Assembly (NCBI GenBank): GCA_965197525.1 | Contig: OZ240211.1 | Location: 1,408,001 to 1,472,000 of the forward strand | Length of the DNA stretch: 64,000 nt | From: Nitrosopumilus sp. | GTDB taxonomy: Archaea; Thermoproteota; Nitrososphaeria; Nitrososphaerales; Nitrosopumilaceae | Direction: 5' to 3' | In this document: positions 11,503 to 50,386 of the stretch, in pieces | Layout: the number at the start of each line of letters is the position of its first letter | Position numbering within the stretch: the stretch's first letter is position 1 | Translations under genes and position numbers: made by a program | Notes under the pieces: model-generated | Seen by the model: only the letters and a program-made list of their open reading frames with translations | Told to the model about the DNA's origin: nothing | Databases searched by the model: none

Positions 11503-12657
11503 GTGGAAAAAGTTTGCGTTCTTGGTGCCGGTAGTACCAAATATGGGAAATTAGAAGATAGTATAGGTGATATTACTACTCAAGCATCGGTTTTAGCCAT
11601 TGAAAGTGCTGGAATTGATCCAAAGGATATCAAAGCAGCCTATATCTCAAATGTTTTTGGGGTAGCCGATAAACAGGTTCACTTGGGCCCTGTATTGATG
11701 AGCAATCTTGGAATCTCAGATAAACCTTCTTTATCAATAGAATCCGCTTGTGGCAGCGGTTCTGTATCATTTAGAGAGGCATATGCTAATGTTGCAGCTG
11801 GGTTTTACGACTGTCTAGTTGTAACTGGTGTTGAAAAAGTCACTCATACAGGTACTGAATGGACCACAACCTACTTTGCATACTGTTCTGATTTTTTCTA
11901 CGAAGGCCAAGCTGGTGCATCATTTCCTGGCCTGTTTGCATCCATGGCACGAGCATATTTGACTGAATTTAACGCAACTGAAGAAGATTTTGCAAGAGTT
12001 GCGGTAAAAAATCATGAAAACGGAGTATTAAATTCCAAAGCACATCTACAAAAGAGGATCACCCTTGATGATGTAATGAACTCACCAGTTGTTGCTAGTC
12101 CCCTAAAACTTTATGATTGTTGTCCATTCTCTGATGGTGCAAGCTCTGTCATACTTTGTTCTGAAAAATTTGCAAAAGAACATGGCAATGACTATATCGA
12201 AGTAATTGGTTCAGGCAGAGGTGGTTCCCCTGCATCTCTGCAAGGACGTGATCATTTGACGACAATACCTAGTACAAAACTTGCTGCAAAAGCTGCATAC
12301 GACATGGCAGGTATTACTGCAAAAGATGTAGATTTTGCAGAAGTACACGACTGTTTTACTATTGCAGAGATTGTTGATACTGAAGATCTAGGATTCTTTG
12401 ATAAAGGACAGGGTGTTTCAGCTGTTCGTGAAGGCAGAACAAAACTAAATTCTGACATTTCTATTAATCCGTCTGGTGGTCTTAAATCTAAAGGACATCC
12501 AATTGGCGCTACTGGTGTTGGGCAAGTAGTGGAAGTATTTGATCAACTAACCGGAAGAGCTGGTAAAAGAACTGTTGACAATGCAAAAATTGGTTTAACC
12601 CATAACTTTGGTGCAACTGGTGCAAGTTGTGCTGTTCATTTATTCCAAAGTGTCTAA
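11503..12657 (+). CDS. Acetyl-CoA C-acetyltransferase (SCP-x-type thiolase)
   Basis: ESACGSG, EVHDCF, NPSGGLKSKGHPIGATG. Confidence 0.95.
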   Translation: MEKVCVLGAGSTKYGKLEDSIGDITTQASVLAIESAGIDPKDIKAAYISNVFGVADKQVHLGPVLMSNLGISDKPSLSIESACGSGSVSFREAYANVAAGFYDCLVVTGVEKVTHTGTEWTTTYFAYCSDFFYEGQAGASFPGLFASMARAYLTEFNATEEDFARVAVKNHENGVLNSKAHLQKRITLDDVMNSPVVASPLKLYDCCPFSDGASSVILCSEKFAKEHGNDYIEVIGSGRGGSPASLQGRDHLTTIPSTKLAAKAAYDMAGITAKDVDFAEVHDCFTIAEIVDTEDLGFFDKGQGVSAVREGRTKLNSDISINPSGGLKSKGHPIGATGVGQVVEVFDQLTGRAGKRTVDNAKIGLTHNFGATGASCAVHLFQSV

Positions 12658-12658
12658 A

Positions 12659-13024
12659 ATGTCTGTTAAAGAACAATTTATTGAAAATGCTAGACAAGGC
12701 AAAGTATTGGCTCATAAATGCACTAGTTGTGAATTATTACATCTCTCTACGGTATATTATTGTCAAAAGTGCGGTAGTAGCAAGTTTGAAGATGCTATAT
12801 TAAACGGTGTAGGCTCTATTGCTACTTATACTATCATAACTGTAGCTCCTGACGGCTTTGCCAAGTATACACCATATGCCTTTGTTGTACTTGCATTAGA
12901 TGATACAGCTTTAAGAATCTCGGGATTTATGGCAGGAATTGCTACTCCTGATGACTTGCCTGTAGGAACTAGAGCTAAAATTACTGGTTTTGACGAGCGT
13001 GGTATTATAATTGAAAAACAGTAA
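12659..13024 (+). CDS. DUF35 Zn-ribbon/OB-fold thiolase partner
   Basis: CTSC..CQKCG followed by an OB-fold; starts 2 nt after the thiolase stop. Confidence 0.9.
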   Translation: MSVKEQFIENARQGKVLAHKCTSCELLHLSTVYYCQKCGSSKFEDAILNGVGSIATYTIITVAPDGFAKYTPYAFVVLALDDTALRISGFMAGIATPDDLPVGTRAKITGFDERGIIIEKQ

Positions 13025-13093
13025 AATAATTTACCCTAATTATTAAAAAAATCCAAAGTACATTTTAATTATTTTGTATATCTGATTATTTTT

Positions 13094-13255
13094 ATGTCAG
13101 TAGAAATTATTTGTGGAAAATGCGGTGAAAAGATACATAACATGAAGATGCTCAAATCTTTGAAGGATGTACTAAATACATCCGATGGCAAATGTCCATC
13201 ATGCGGCCAAAAACTTTCTACAGCTGAGTTTTCACTTGACGTTCAAGAAAACTAA
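13094..13255 (+). CDS. Small zinc-ribbon protein (53 aa, not in the track)
   Basis: MSVEIICGKCGEKIHNMKMLKSLKDVLNTSDGKCPSCGQKLSTAEFSLDVQEN; two CxxC motifs. Confidence 0.7.
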   Translation: MSVEIICGKCGEKIHNMKMLKSLKDVLNTSDGKCPSCGQKLSTAEFSLDVQEN

Positions 13256-13307
13256 TTTCAAAAACTAGTTTGAATGCATGTAAAAACATCCTCGTCGTAG
13301 TCTAGAT

Positions 13308-13425
13308 GATGGATCGACCCCTTGTGAAACATGTGCTTCGCGCACTTTAGTTTGAATGGGGCAATCCGAGCTGCTGCGTTCCTGTGCTTCGCGCACTGAT
13401 AGGTGATTGCAGCCTCCGATCCATC
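13308..13425 (+). ncRNA. Putative bridge RNA of IS110 copy 1 (target- and donor-binding loops)
   Basis: Outer stem GATGGATCG/CGATCCATC; two internal loops, each with hairpin GTGC-TTCGC-GCAC; loop strands match the element ends and insertion site. Confidence 0.78.
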
Positions 13426-13456
13426 AAAAACAATCCGCAAGGAGGTGATAAAAAGG

Positions 13457-14557
13457 ATGAGAAATATTGGAATAGACATTAGCAAGAGAAAATGCGTAGT
13501 ATGTGTAATGGATGACAAGGGAAGAATACTAGAGGAAACTACATATGACAATACGCTAGAAGATGCAAAAGAGTTTGCAGGCAGGATGAAAAGAGAGTAC
13601 GGCAGGAGAAGAGGACAGTGCCGTGCTGCATGCGAGACTACAGGAAACATGTGGCTCAAGACATTTGAGGCATTTGAGGAACACGACATACCAATCCAGC
13701 TTGCCAACACCTACAAGATGAAGATAATATCAGATACCGACGTCAAGACGGATCCCATCGATGCACGAAAGATTGCCAACATACTTCGTGTAGAGATGAT
13801 TCCCCAGTGTTATGTGGCGCCACCTGCGTTGCGTGATGCCAGAGAGCTGCTCAGGTACAGAATAAGCATGGTCCAGGCAAGGACTGCACTTATCAACTAT
13901 ACACACGGTCTGCTTGACAAGTACGATGTAAGACTGAACGTCTCAAACATGTACAGCAAAAAAGCCATCGGACTGCTCTCACATACAGAACTGAAAAGAC
14001 CAAACGACAACCTGATACTGAAGAACTGTGCCAAAAGAATTGCACATGTCACAGAAGAGATAACAAATGTCGAAACAGAGATAGACAAACAGGCCGCAGT
14101 AAACGATGATGCAAGACTGCTTATGAGCATGACAGGACTGGATGTATTTGCATCAATGCTTGTCGTATCAGAGATTGGGGACATATCAAGATTCAAAACC
14201 CCCGAACACTTGGTCTCATGGGCAGGCATGTGTCCCACCGTCTACCAATCAGGTGATGTAACACATCATGGCCGCATGAAAAAGGCAGCAAACGGAAGAA
14301 TAAACTGGATACTTATTCAAGCAGCAAACGTGGCAGCAAGACACGATGACAAGTTAAAGGAGTTCTATGAGAGATGCAAAAAAAGACATGGCGGCAAACA
14401 TGTGATTACAGTAACACATGTGGCAAACAAGATGATACGAATCATTTGGGCCATACTGACCTTCAGGGAACCGTACAAGTCACGCAATGTACAAAGATAT
14501 GGCAGAAAGATGAAGAGAATGAACAGTGTTCGACAGTCTATGCAGGGCACAGAATAG
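13457..14557 (+). CDS. IS110 DEDD recombinase/transposase
   Basis: GIDISKR, ACETTG, KTDPID (DEDD), GMCPTVYQSG (Tnp-domain Ser); GGAGGTG upstream of ATG 13457. Confidence 0.95.
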   Translation: MRNIGIDISKRKCVVCVMDDKGRILEETTYDNTLEDAKEFAGRMKREYGRRRGQCRAACETTGNMWLKTFEAFEEHDIPIQLANTYKMKIISDTDVKTDPIDARKIANILRVEMIPQCYVAPPALRDARELLRYRISMVQARTALINYTHGLLDKYDVRLNVSNMYSKKAIGLLSHTELKRPNDNLILKNCAKRIAHVTEEITNVETEIDKQAAVNDDARLLMSMTGLDVFASMLVVSEIGDISRFKTPEHLVSWAGMCPTVYQSGDVTHHGRMKKAANGRINWILIQAANVAARHDDKLKEFYERCKKRHGGKHVITVTHVANKMIRIIWAILTFREPYKSRNVQRYGRKMKRMNSVRQSMQGTE

Positions 14558-14688
14558 CCAGCCAGTCACACATCCGTTGCAGTTTTGTTCCTAGCGATAG
14601 CTTTAAAAATATACACGTGTATTGTAGGCGTGGATCGAAGGCCAAATGGAAACCACGCGTGGCTGTGCCCGGATGTTTTAACATAGGT

Positions 14689-16048
14689 GTTTCATAACAT
14701 GCCACAGTTCTGACCCGATTGTATAGCATCTAGCCCATACTTTCATCATACCATTGAGATCACCCTCTGAGTTATGTCTACGAACTGGTTGTAGCGCTGG
14801 ATCTTTAACGCTATCTCTTGAATAATGTTATCCATTGTTTTTGCCCTTACCGAACTTCCAAATATTCTCTTGAACGCAGAGAAGAATATCTCCACCTGCC
14901 ATCGGGAACCGTATTCCGCACGTTTTTTCCACTCGTTTTGGTTTTCCGCACGTTCCTTGATATCCATCTCATGGAATTTGGCAAGGCTTGTAGTGCCGCC
15001 ACCCAGCTGGTCAAGCGCTGCAATACCGCGTTCCCTGCTTATCCCCATTGCCTTGTATTCTGCATTGCGTCTTATCCTGATGATAGGTGTAATGCCGTAC
15101 TCTTTGCATATCTGAAAATTCTCCCTGCTGTCATATCCTGCATCTGCCTTGATCTTAATTTTAACATGATCTGGCGGTGGCCCAGTACCTGCAGCCATTA
15201 CTGTTGCGCGTCGTACATCTGGATCTATTCCCTTGTTCCTCAGTGCCTGTCTTATCAGGGGCTCGAACTGTGGGGAATCACCAATCTTTTCGTCAGTTAC
15301 CGTGAATCCAAGCACCCGCATGGTGTCCTGCTGTATCATGACACTGAGTCTTATGAAACCTGACTTGGTCTTTATCTTGTATTTGTATCGTATGTAGTCG
15401 CCTTTGGCAGACGGGGACATGCCTGTTCCATCTATGATGATCTGCAACACACTGTCTTTGCTCCTGACGGTTATGGTTCTGTCTGTAATGGATGTATCAA
15501 GACTCTTCGTTCTTCTCCACAGGGTAACGTGATCAGGTGCGTTTTCCTCACCCAGTGCAGCTATTGCCATTCCTTCCACACATCTGAATGCAATGCCCAG
15601 CTGTAGACGTATTCCGATTATGGCCATTATCAGGCACTCTGGATAGATGAACGGATGACCGTTTTTGCCTGCATTCATCCGTTTAAGTTCATCTACCATG
15701 TTGTCAGGAAGAACCAAATGTATCATCTTTCCTCGTTCCACATATCTTGCATCATTTTGCGCATGGCTCATGTGTAGCCGCGATTTTTGTTTGGTTCTGG
15801 TACCATCATGCGTCATACCCGTCTACCTCCAGAACGCAGCACATAACTAATTTCGATTAACTTGCTGGAGAAAAGAAACTCACACGTAACATTAAATTGT
15901 CTTCCTGTGAAATATGGTTGGTGCGGATATCCTTTCATTTGTTGTGATCTGAAAGGATATTACGCTCCAGCTCTTTAAATGCGAAAGTTAGTTGCAGTTA
16001 ATCTGCAACTTGAATATCTATGACACTGTTTGTGGCAGGTTATGAAAC
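14689..16048 (-). mobile_element. IS5-family (IS903-like) element
   Basis: 18-bp TIRs GTTTCATAACATGCCACA (14689-14706) and TGTGGCAGGTTATGAAAC (16031-16048), 17/18 match; 6-bp direct repeat AAACTA at 13262-67 and 16049-54 once the IS110 is removed. Confidence 0.85.
14746..15816 (-). CDS. IS5-family DDE transposase
   Basis: PDHVTLWRR, IIDGTG, ADAGYDS, YGSRWQVEIFFSAFKRIFG. Confidence 0.9.
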   Translation of the reverse strand: MTHDGTRTKQKSRLHMSHAQNDARYVERGKMIHLVLPDNMVDELKRMNAGKNGHPFIYPECLIMAIIGIRLQLGIAFRCVEGMAIAALGEENAPDHVTLWRRTKSLDTSITDRTITVRSKDSVLQIIIDGTGMSPSAKGDYIRYKYKIKTKSGFIRLSVMIQQDTMRVLGFTVTDEKIGDSPQFEPLIRQALRNKGIDPDVRRATVMAAGTGPPPDHVKIKIKADAGYDSRENFQICKEYGITPIIRIRRNAEYKAMGISRERGIAALDQLGGGTTSLAKFHEMDIKERAENQNEWKKRAEYGSRWQVEIFFSAFKRIFGSSVRAKTMDNIIQEIALKIQRYNQFVDITQRVISMV

Positions 16049-16165
16049 AAACTATCAAAAACAAAACTAATAAAACAATTTTTCTATTTTTCAAAACAAT
16101 TATTTAAAAATATTTGAAATTATCCAGTCACAAGTCTTATTTACTCCTTTCTTTCAGAAACAACA

Positions 16166-48837: not shown

Positions 48838-48887
48838 GATTGAACGTATGTGAACACATGTAACCACCCTCCTCCTAGTATCTATGT

Positions 48888-49023
48888 GATAGGCTGACCC
48901 CTAAATCGACATGGGCTTCGCGCCCTTGTGCATGAATGGGGGGGGGGGGGAGAGGAGGAGGATCCGAGCTGCTGTGTTCCTAGGCTTCGCGCCCTGATAG
49001 GTAATTGCAGCTTCCGGTCTGTC
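48888..49023 (+). ncRNA. Putative bridge RNA of IS110 copy 2
   Basis: Same scaffold as 13308-13425 with compensatory changes (GGGC-TTCGC-GCCC; outer stem GATAGGCTG/CGGTCTGTC); G13 plus purine run between the loops. Confidence 0.72.
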
Positions 49024-49055
49024 AGATGAATCCCAAAGGAGGTGAAAATAAAGGA

Positions 49056-50129
49056 TTGACAATAATAGGAACGAAAAAGATAGGAACGAAAAGTGTAGGA
49101 ATAGACATCGGTAAGAGGAGATGTATAGTGTGTATTATGAATGAAGATGGCGCCGTAATGGAGAGAACAGAATATGATAACACGTTTGAAGATGCTACAA
49201 AATTTGCTAAAAAGATAAAACAAGAATATGGAGAGTGCAAAGCTGCATGTGAAACAACCGGTAACATGTGGATAAAAACATTTGAGGCGTTTGAGAGTCA
49301 GAACATACCAATCAAACTAACAAACACATTCAAGATGAAGATAATATCAGAGACTAGTGTAAAGACTGATATTATTGATGCACGCAAGATTGCCGATTTG
49401 GTAAGAGTTGACATGATACCAAGATGCTATGTTGCGCCTGCTGACATACGAGATAACAGACAGCTATTAAGGCACAGGATTAGTCTGGTCCAAGACAGAA
49501 CAAAGGTGATTAATCATGTTCGGAATCTGCTTGACAAGTATGATATCAAAATAGGTGGATCAGAAATACACTCAAAAAAGTCATTGAAACAACTTGCAGA
49601 CACCAATCTTCGTGGAGATAACGATCAGTTCATGCTAAGACAATGCGTCAGACAGATACAGTATCTGAATGATGAGATAGAACATACAGAAGAAAAGATA
49701 GCACAACAAGCTTCAAAAAATGACTATGCACAGATTCTACCTAGCATGACAGGAATAGAGATATTTTCAGCCATGCTTATCGCATCAGAGATTGGAGATA
49801 TCTCAAGATTCAACACTGCAAAACAGCTAGTGTCATGGGCAGGCATGTGTCCACGAGTGTACCAATCAGGTAATACGACACATCATGGAAGAATAAAAAA
49901 AGATTCAAACAGACGAGTCAACTGGATAATGATTCAGGATGCCAACACTGCAGTACGTCATGATGGTATAATGAAGAGATTTTACGAGCAGGTCAAACAA
50001 AGACATGGCGGCAATCATCCAATTGCAATAACACATGTTGCAAACAAGATGATTACGATAATCTGGAATATGTTGACTGCCATAACCACGTACTCTACCA
50101 AAAGTAACGATGTATCAAAGAGAGCTTAA
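49056..50129 (+). CDS. IS110 DEDD recombinase/transposase (C-terminus probably frameshifted)
   Basis: GIDIGKR, ACETTG, KTDIID, GMCPRVYQSG; TTG start after GGAGGTG; the alternative frame near 50100 gives MYQRELKKI, resembling copy 1 YGRKMKRM. Confidence 0.92.
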   Translation: MTIIGTKKIGTKSVGIDIGKRRCIVCIMNEDGAVMERTEYDNTFEDATKFAKKIKQEYGECKAACETTGNMWIKTFEAFESQNIPIKLTNTFKMKIISETSVKTDIIDARKIADLVRVDMIPRCYVAPADIRDNRQLLRHRISLVQDRTKVINHVRNLLDKYDIKIGGSEIHSKKSLKQLADTNLRGDNDQFMLRQCVRQIQYLNDEIEHTEEKIAQQASKNDYAQILPSMTGIEIFSAMLIASEIGDISRFNTAKQLVSWAGMCPRVYQSGNTTHHGRIKKDSNRRVNWIMIQDANTAVRHDGIMKRFYEQVKQRHGGNHPIAITHVANKMITIIWNMLTAITTYSTKSNDVSKRA

Positions 50130-50294
50130 AAAGATCAGTGACGCACAATGATGTAAGACTGGAATGCAATTGAGACAGACATAATGCTGTGAGCAATGGA
50201 TAGTTATCCACACAGGTGTTCACGTCATCCCTTAATCCGTGCCTAACTACAATCCACATCGACCTATCCATAAGCACGAATCAAGAGGGATGTG

Positions 50295-50386
50295 GTATGC
50301 ACTCAGGTCTCATTCGTTTATAGGTGTGATTTTACAGGATGCTACGTTTTTTTGTGCCTACGCAGACACCTGACCTGAGTGCATAC
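50295..50386. mobile_element. 92-bp MITE
   Basis: Perfect 15-bp TIRs GTATGCACTCAGGTC / GACCTGAGTGCATAC; 8-bp TSD GGGATGTG (50287-94, 50387-94); empty-site homolog at 37041-37060. Confidence 0.85.

Follow-up and report, generated by a model that had tools for sequence, protein, structure and literature searches.

How does a mobile element in an ammonia-oxidizing lineage choose its insertion sites? The window analysed here, a 64,000-nt stretch of the genome of a Nitrosopumilaceae archaeon (Nitrosopumilus sp., contig OZ240211.1, positions 1,408,001 to 1,472,000), raises this question because it carries an IS110-family element of 1417 bp at window positions 13273-14689, counting one copy of the crossover core. 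The anatomy of the element, the conserved fold of an RNA encoded in its left end and the covariation of four guide strands of this RNA with the flanks and ends of the element are all directly visible in the sequences compared. We conclude, with a probability of roughly 0.9, that this is an intact IS110-family element that moves by bridge-RNA-guided recombination. An initial annotation of the window had already proposed an intact element with a left-end bridge RNA, four guides and its own scaffold, and covariation within the genome and across relatives supports this proposal.

Boundaries and crossover core

The genome is a single 2.21-Mb contig with four copies of the element (c1-c4) that are 96-100% identical and have different flanks. 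Together with uninterrupted copies of the target, these copies fix the ends and a TG core, TG being all that both junctions share with the empty site when filled and empty sites are compared. The left junction reads …ACTAGTT-TG(13271-72)-AATGCATG… and the right junction …AACATAGG-TG(14688-89)-TTTCATAAC…. In c1-c3, each junction has TG, as do the empty sites, and target duplication is absent. The GT core first annotated at 13268-69 and 14689-90 was wrong by 1-3 nt, and the span given with it, 13268-14690, is corrected to 13273-14689 by the copies and the empty sites. The junctions are organised as follows.

13266-13270, plus strand: left half of the target, TAGTT, in which the TA flank precedes the initial 3 nt of an IS5-like inverted repeat; identical to the target-loop 3' guide at 13348-52
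13271-13272, plus strand: left core copy TG, from the comparison of junctions and empty sites
13273-13291, plus strand: left end, 5-nt extension AATGC (13273-77) and subterminal inverted repeat ATGTAAAAACATCC (13278-91)
14671-14687, plus strand: right end, subterminal inverted repeat GGATGTTTTAACAT (14671-84) and 3-nt extension AGG
14688-14689, plus strand: right core copy TG, from the same comparison
14690-14697, plus strand: TTTCATAA as the right target half, equal to nucleotides 6-13 in the IS5-like inverted repeat; its partner is 13322-29 (7 Watson-Crick pairs and one G:T)

The 14-bp subterminal repeat at 13278-91 agrees with the reverse complement of 14671-84 at 13 of 14 positions, and inverted repeats of 11-19 bp are found at the same offsets in nearly all homologs. 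Left ends of relatives were placed by a conserved left-end motif, with a regular expression that demanded TG; the dinucleotide is hence built into the search, whose result is that such a site exists at the conserved left position in 50 of the 54 parsed elements. Right ends were placed by the 3' strand of the donor loop (a 7-mer), and TG follows in all 39 elements in which a right-end site was found, the search having demanded the core dinucleotide of the guide. The core positions of the 3' guides themselves read TG in 52-54 of 54 elements.

A conserved two-loop RNA in the left end

The scaffold of the bridge RNA lies upstream of the recombinase gene.

13308-13425, plus strand: bridge RNA scaffold, 118 nt, identified by its conserved fold and a covariance model

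A 9-bp outer stem (GATGGATCG at 13308-16 with CGATCCATC at 13417-25) encloses a target loop (TBL; stem 13318-21/13358-61, hairpin 13333-45) and a donor loop (DBL; stem 13370-74/13409-13, hairpin 13384-96). Both modules are capped by an identical hairpin, GTGC-TTCGC-GCAC. The initial annotation had described this outer stem around two loops with these caps, and it is present exactly where it was described.

The fold was examined in an alignment of 34 upstream regions from elements with 38-100% protein identity, the five helices being specified beforehand. In these helices, 95.5% of the cells are paired and 19 of the 26 pairs show changes on both sides. None of 500 shuffles matched the statistics of the fold, slid partners were only 31-50% paired, and RNAalifold predicts the same helices independently. 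A covariance test across relatives, proposed with the initial annotation, finds the fold conserved with compensatory changes. The 118-nt RNA alone folds at z = -3.35; for a wider region of 193 nt the value, z = -1.18, is uninformative. A scan of 12500-15500 with Rfam 15 matched no family. Our covariance model (R1) gives 135.8 bits to the RNA at 13308-13425, the best score in the genome; it matches only the left end of the element, and the 130-nt region downstream of the recombinase gene contains no two-loop RNA. Stem cells in the 34 homologs include 34 G:U against 8 A:C and, therefore, the RNA is most probably made from the plus strand, which is that of the recombinase.

Target guides and their natural reprogramming

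Both strands of the target loop correspond to the flanks of the element.

13322-13331, plus strand: target-loop 5' guide, TTGTGAAA-CA; pairs with plus strand TG-TTTCATAA (14688-97)
13348-13357, plus strand: target-loop 3' guide, TAGTT, then core TG, then handshake AAT; the same sequence stands at the left junction, 13266-75

The complementarity of TTGTGAAAC (13322-30) to the right junction (14689-97), first seen in the initial annotation, is borne out and widens to 10 nt, 13322-31 pairing with 14688-97 through 9 Watson-Crick pairs and one G:T. That annotation also placed a guide on the 3' side of the target loop; such a guide does exist, although the segment put forward, TTTAGT, had a weak 4/6 match, and the true one is TAGTTTGAATG (13348-58), identical at 11 of 11 positions to the left junction 13266-76.

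Comparison of the copies within the genome reveals guides that changed along with the sites. Only five differences separate c1 from c3 within the 118-nt RNA, and four of them fall in the two target guides (hypergeometric P ~8e-4 for 4/5 changes within roughly 15 programmable positions). The 5' strand of the target loop is TTGTGAAACA in c1 and c2, TTAGGAAACA in c3 and TTGGGAAACA in c4, and the 3' strand is TTTAGTT-TG in c1 and c2 and TTAACTT-TG in c3 and c4. The right flanks are TG-TTTCATAA (c1), TG-ATACCTGA (c3) and CG-TTTCCCAA (c4), so that right-target positions 5-6 are A/T (wobble), C/T and C/C, respectively; the variable pair of the 5' guide, GT, AG and GG in the same three copies, tracks them. 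The left flanks of c1 to c4 are TAGTT, TAGTT, AACTT and AACTC. Variable guide positions of the copies agree with their own flanks.

The same agreement is found among relatives. Left flanks were compared in 43 distinct insertions: between the 7 nt ahead of TG and loop columns 47-53, an average of 4.70 of 7 positions agree, versus 1.53 with the guides of unrelated elements; the identities per position are.14,.21,.60,.93,.93,.93 and.95. On the right side (36 insertions, leaving aside the G117 and G335 subfamilies, L074, L084 and the second element of the window, whose right ends were unlocated), the 5' strand, reverse-complemented, agrees with the 8 nt that follow TG at 4.67 of 8 positions, or 5.5 with wobble, versus 2.04 in cross pairings; the identities are.83,.83,.78,.64,.64,.50,.22 and.22. 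The observed mean match was reached by 0 of 100,000 permutations on the left and likewise on the right. These per-position identities indicate a programmable target of ~4-5 nt, then TG, then ~6 nt. Covariation of guides with flanks across homologs, which the initial annotation had named as a check, is found in ~40 independent insertions. Furthermore, the three nucleotides after the target 3' guide (AA… or AC…) covary with the start of the left end, as expected for an IS621-type handshake.

Donor guides

The second loop corresponds to the ends of the element itself.

13375-13381, plus strand: donor-loop 5' guide TGCGTTC; pairs with plus strand GAATGCA (core G and left end, 13272-78) through 6 Watson-Crick pairs and one G:T
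13399-13405, plus strand: donor-loop 3' guide ATAGG with core TG; ATAGGTG is identical to the right end and core, 14683-89

Both of these matches were in the initial annotation and are found at the positions it gave. The 2-nt gap that it described between donor guide and core arose because the core had been misplaced: once TG is taken as the core, the guide lies directly against it and includes its G. In 26 distinct guide/left-end combinations, the donor-loop 5' strand matches left-end positions +1 or +2 to +6 at 4.9 of 6 positions in its own element and at 3.1 in cross comparisons, with co-changes such as AAAGC/GCTTT and CTTTA/TAAAG. The right end and the donor-loop 3' strand also co-vary between subfamilies (ATAGG, ATGGA, ATAGA, ATGAG); this identity over the 5 nt before TG is partly built in, since the right end was set by that strand. 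Independently of the search, the site matched by the 3' strand keeps the same position beside the right subterminal repeat. For a handshake in the donor loop, columns 110-112 compared with the first right-target nucleotides gave 28% vs 18% at position 1, which is not significant (permutation p ~0.07).

The target is the tip of an IS5-like element

14690-16052, minus strand: interrupted IS5-like element, whose first 5 nt (GTT and TG) now stand at 13268-72; transposase open reading frame (ORF) 14746-15816

The element at 13273-14689 took as its target the tip of a terminal inverted repeat in this IS5-like element, which is 1368 bp long, has the inverted repeat GTTTGTTTCATAAC… and TA flanks, and was entered 5 nt into its left repeat. 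Its transposase matches the Pfam families DDE_Tnp_1 and DDE_Tnp_1_5. Uninterrupted sites (L009, L012) read ACTAG(T/C)T-TG-TTTCATAAC, and TTTCATAA occurs at both ends of other uninterrupted IS5-like copies. The other end of the IS5-like element (~16040-16054; C1:1424054) is a perfect, unoccupied 15-nt target. Two more targets, equally perfect and unoccupied, are C1:1061630 and C1:1063001. In a congeneric genome (L027), the tip of the IS5-like inverted repeat is the target as well.

The recombinase

13441-13448, plus strand: Shine-Dalgarno-like GGAGGTGA, 8 nt ahead of the ATG
13457-14557, plus strand: IS110-family DEDD/Ser recombinase, 366 aa, intact ORF, identified by Pfam, NCBIfam and motifs

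The protein matches an N-terminal RuvC-like domain, DEDD_Tnp_IS110 (PF01548; 3.4e-24), and a C-terminal one, Transposase_20 (PF02371; 5.9e-24), in Pfam and reaches 230.8 bits, for a cutoff of 140, with NCBIfam NF033542 ('IS110 family RNA-guided transposase'). Its catalytic residues are D7 (GIDIS), E60 (CETTG), D99 and D102 (TDPIDA) and S265 (GMCPTVYQSG), in motifs that align with those of ISCro4. Alignment with the ISCro4 and IS621 recombinases of solved structure is weak but significant (E ~1e-8). The ORF is bordered by non-coding stretches of 184 nt upstream and 130 nt downstream, and AGGAGGTGA precedes the start codon in nearly all homologs. Of 401 genomes sampled from the class, 56 contain relatives of the recombinase at E <= 1e-40; the relatives that are named are Cenarchaeum, Nitrosopumilus and Nitrososphaerales metagenome-assembled genomes (MAGs).

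Proposed mechanism and alternative explanations

By homology with IS621 and ISEc11, we infer transcription, circle formation and the chemistry of recombination. The left non-coding end would be transcribed on the recombinase strand to give an RNA of ~118 nt. In its first module, which would read the target, the 5' strand UUGUGAAA-CA would pair with the recombinase-sense strand TG-TTTCATAA and the 3' strand UAGUU-UG with the strand opposite TAGTT-TG; the following AAU equals the first nucleotides of the left end and would serve as a handshake fitting the recombinant left junction. The second module would read the donor, i.e. the joined ends CATAGG-TG-AATGCA, its 3' strand AUAGG-UG covering the right end and core and its 5' strand UGCGUUC the core G and left end. 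The DEDD/Ser recombinase would then exchange strands at the TG core, an exchange that leaves TG at both junctions and no target duplication.

Some observations weigh against this scheme. The right junction of c4 is CG rather than TG; empty sites of c4 were sought in congeners and none was found, the c4 flank being itself repetitive. Copy c2 has the guides of c1, and its right half-site, TTTTGGAG, pairs poorly with them (4 Watson-Crick pairs and 3 wobbles), which fits targeting that may not be strict or an insertion by a tolerated half-match. Several homologs match their right flank only with a 1-nt bulge, and the donor-loop 5' strand of the window's copy puts C, not A, opposite the second core position. 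Moreover, a search of sequencing runs returned no RNA run containing the element. Logan contigs from three DNA-like runs and one sponge metatranscriptome, whose depths mix several organisms, gave neither transcript starts nor joints of a circle or an empty site.

The lack of an RNA run and of a circle joint in these contigs could mean that the element is a decayed or immobile relic, in which guide/flank matches record the last insertion and the RNA is neither made nor used. Six left-end/RNA remnants without recombinase in the same genome, and perfect target sites that are still unoccupied, would also fit such a state. However, c1 and c2 occupy different sites and share 99.7-100% identity along 1.4 kb, the ORF, catalytic residues, fold and both ends are intact, the RNA at 13308-13425 is the best in the genome on the covariance model, and metagenome contigs contain at least one right flank unlike any copy inspected in the genome. 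We consider a relic improbable; expression, excision and activity are suggested by homology, by the near-identity of c1 and c2 and by the intact parts. Another possibility is that the guide RNA comes from the opposite strand, antisense to the recombinase, in which case the layout would be like that of IS621. The stems are largely symmetric under reverse complement and would allow it. But the 34 G:U cells pair only in plus-strand RNA, as opposed to 8 A:C cells that pair only in minus-strand RNA; an antisense RNA would have its core-pairing nucleotides at the 5' end of the guides and its handshake before the guide, the opposite of the solved IS621 geometry; and the RNA lies between an A/T box of the left end and the recombinase ribosome-binding site, all on one strand. 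An antisense RNA is for these reasons very unlikely.

It is even harder to believe that the similarity between loops and junctions is a by-product at the DNA level, such as a junction copied in by aberrant recombination, and has nothing to do with RNA guidance. The target-loop 3' strand is indeed a literal copy of the left junction (11/11), and odd truncated copies end there, L010 diverging directly after TTTAGTTTGAATGC. Nevertheless, the other three guide strands are complementary or match elsewhere, all four lie in loops of a fold kept by compensatory changes, and the same logic recurs in ~40 independent insertions and in haloarchaea. Furthermore, experiments have shown that homologous systems use RNA (PMC11208160, PMC11187229). 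Bridge-RNA-guided movement thus remains the explanation that we retain for the element.

Comparison with IS621-type and IS1111-type systems

The element shares many traits with IS621 and ISCro4 of the IS110 group (PDB 8WT6, 9T56): a DEDD and Ser recombinase; an RNA in the left end, upstream of the recombinase gene, with two internal-loop modules, target first and donor second; guides that end in a core-pairing dinucleotide, the 5' guide (6-8 + 2) being longer than the 3' guide (4-5 + 2); handshake nucleotides behind the target 3' guide; and a 2-nt core at both junctions without target duplication. In IS621, the core-pairing nucleotides stand at the 3' end of the guides and the handshake after the 3' guide (PMC11208158), and the guide geometry of our element, seen from the RNA's own viewpoint, is the same. 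Other traits differ. The core is TG (CA from the viewpoint of the RNA) whereas that of IS621 is CT; subterminal repeats are 14 bp here and absent or 2-3 bp in IS110 sensu stricto; and a common 9-bp outer stem replaces the tandem stem-loops that follow a 5' stem-loop in IS621. Relative to the direction of the recombinase gene, the 5' and 3' sides have also exchanged the DNA strands that they read. In IS621, the 3' side is complementary to the core and right half, 'top' being the strand of the RNA and recombinase; here, the 5' sides pair with the plus strand and the 3' sides carry plus-strand sequence, so the IS621 strand rule does not hold. The IS621-type bridge logic initially claimed is accordingly right for the guide logic and for the geometry seen from the RNA, and does not extend to the layout, since ends, strand order and outer stem are not IS621-like.

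Several of these differences bring the element closer to the IS1111 family (ISEc11, ISPa11, ISKpn4). Siddiquee et al. 2024 (PMC11187229) define this family by subterminal repeats, usually 11-13 bp long, and by terminal extensions that measure 7 bp on the left and 3 bp on the right; its seekRNAs place the complement of the top strand ahead of that of the bottom strand. Our element likewise has subterminal repeats of at least 11 bp, extensions of 7 nt on the left (TGAATGC, 13271-77, core counted) and 3 nt on the right (AGG, 14685-87), and the top-strand complement first in its RNA. The strand order that the initial annotation listed as a difference is indeed reversed relative to IS621; it is not new, having already been described for IS1111-type seekRNAs in the same paper. 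In contrast to IS1111 elements, in which the guide RNA is downstream of the transposase gene, the RNA is upstream here, and there is an extra non-coding region of 130 nt downstream with only a promoter-like box and one strand of a closing helix. Among IS1111 relatives, that paper names an upstream position only for exceptions: the non-coding region of ISMtsp17 precedes the gene, and in ISAcp5 and the haloarchaeal ISHvo10 the gene has long non-coding stretches to either side. With 184 nt ahead of its gene and 130 nt behind it, our element resembles these three, going by their descriptions there. As to the target, IS4321 and IS5075 of the IS1111 family take a single orientation when they enter the terminal inverted repeats of another transposon, as cited in PMC11208160 (ref. 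10). Transposon inverted repeats are targets here too, with an IS5-like tip in the window and similar cases in L027 and L091; IS4321 and IS5075 differ in their bacterial hosts, in using the inverted repeat of the Tn21 family and in their downstream RNA.

Judged by these traits, the layout looks like a hybrid of IS1111-type ends and guide order with an IS110-type RNA position. Surveys have reported many non-canonical classes of bridge RNA and have catalogued archaeal IS110 recombinases. In the literature searched, bridge and seek RNAs have been worked out in bacterial elements, and we found no archaeal element with mapped guides.

A possible closing block in the right end

Three parts of the 130-nt region behind the gene are conserved: a TATA-like box, a block at 14630-41 and the inverted repeat.

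14602-14609, plus strand: TATA-like box TTTAAAAA, putative promoter
14630-14641, plus strand: right-end block GTGGATCGAAGG, complementary to the RNA linker and 3' outer strand at 13413-24

In an alignment of 30 right ends that was blind to the RNA, the spacing between an A/T-rich box and the block downstream of it is fixed at ~24-30 nt, and 74.7% of the cells of the block pair with 13413-24. Shuffled partners pair at 63.2 +/- 1.9% (0 of 2000 as high) and slid partners at 22-37%; positions of block and outer strand switch between A-T and G-C across relatives. In predicted circle-junction RNAs, the block closes the structure in 6 of 7 homologs, though not in the copy at 13273-14689. Judging from this complementarity, the block can replace the 5' strand of the outer stem.

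We tentatively suggest that the full bridge RNA gene may be split by the junction of the element, an insertion-competent long RNA being made only after excision, although this is rather less probable than not. The block would give 11-12 bp with 13413-24, versus 9 bp from the left-end strand, and the excised circle alone would join the right-end promoter and closing strand to the guide modules, in the order recombinase, closing strand, junction, guide modules. A shorter RNA made from the left end only would serve integrated copies. The complementarity of the block could also possibly reflect an mRNA panhandle or a repeat at the DNA level.

Other copies, remnants and relatives

The covariance model R1 has 11 matches in the genome, which correspond to the four intact elements, one element of a second family and six remnants without recombinase. 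The second-family element (~48882-50330 of the window) also belongs to the IS110 family, with 57% protein identity and its own bridge RNA (48882-49029; 87.5 bits on R1). It has a G-rich insert of 18 nt between the modules, its guides fit the flanks only partly and the core of its donor loop reads TA; this element may be in decay. The six remnants, consisting of left end and RNA, lie at 1712351, 2186921, 2177492, 161865, 2168589 and 352408 of the genome contig (G000:C1). They were considered as mini-elements and this was rejected: no right end was found within 1.7 kb of any of them, and they look like truncated left ends. In the one at 352408, everything between the two identical hairpins is gone, as if recombined between them. 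Three more IS110-family ORFs on this contig (865123-866091, 1260966-1261958 and 1841869-1842909) have only 26-29% identity to the 366-aa recombinase.

Among relatives, two elements of a Cenarchaeum sp. MAG (L051 and L052 in G012) have left ends shortened by their first 8 nt, with TG-G in place of TG-AACACATG-G, a loss that looks like an exchange at a second TG; their guides still agree with their flanks (ATTCATT-TG; TG-GTTAT). Another element (L038 in G226), with the guides TTGTTGT-TG and ACCCACA-CA, sits at the boundary of a (GTT)n/(GTGTGGTT)n microsatellite, which is a simple-repeat target. A contig of the sponge metatranscriptome (run X19, over 13270-13409), ~93% alike, spans the left junction of a relative, and its flank CCTTGAT-TG agrees with its own guide TTTTGAT-TG; this contig may be a weak hint of transcription in the relative, or DNA carry-over.

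Beyond this class, an element of the Halanaeroarchaeum plasmid pHSR2-01 (L091, 52293-54721; 32% protein identity) is built in the same way, with a two-loop RNA upstream, a TG core and subterminal repeats. Its left flank GGGCCT-TG-ACT compares with the guide AGGCCT-TG-ACT, and its guide GTGTCTAAA-CA with the right flank TG-TTTAGAC; it is also inserted in the end of an IS5-family element. Matches found in plasmids by tblastn with the recombinase are named only generically, as 'IS110 family'.

Implications

These data point to a known mechanism, in an apparently intact element, with an unusual layout. The guides reprogrammed between sister copies, together with matching new sites, amount to a natural experiment from which targeting rules can be drawn, using one complete genome and ~50 relatives. 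With a protein of 366 aa, an RNA of 118 nt, a TG core and a mesophilic archaeal host, this compact system is a possible tool that may widen the choice of bridge recombinases. If the pairing of the right-end block is real, it would imply a circle-dependent control of the RNA, which is a control undescribed for IS621; and if the gene is truly split, this arrangement would be an intermediate between the IS1111 type, with the RNA before the junction, and the IS110 type, with the RNA after it. The hybrid layout bears on the relationship between the IS110 and IS1111 subgroups, and also on the proposed descent of archaeal Nop5/C-D box ribonucleoproteins from IS110-like systems.

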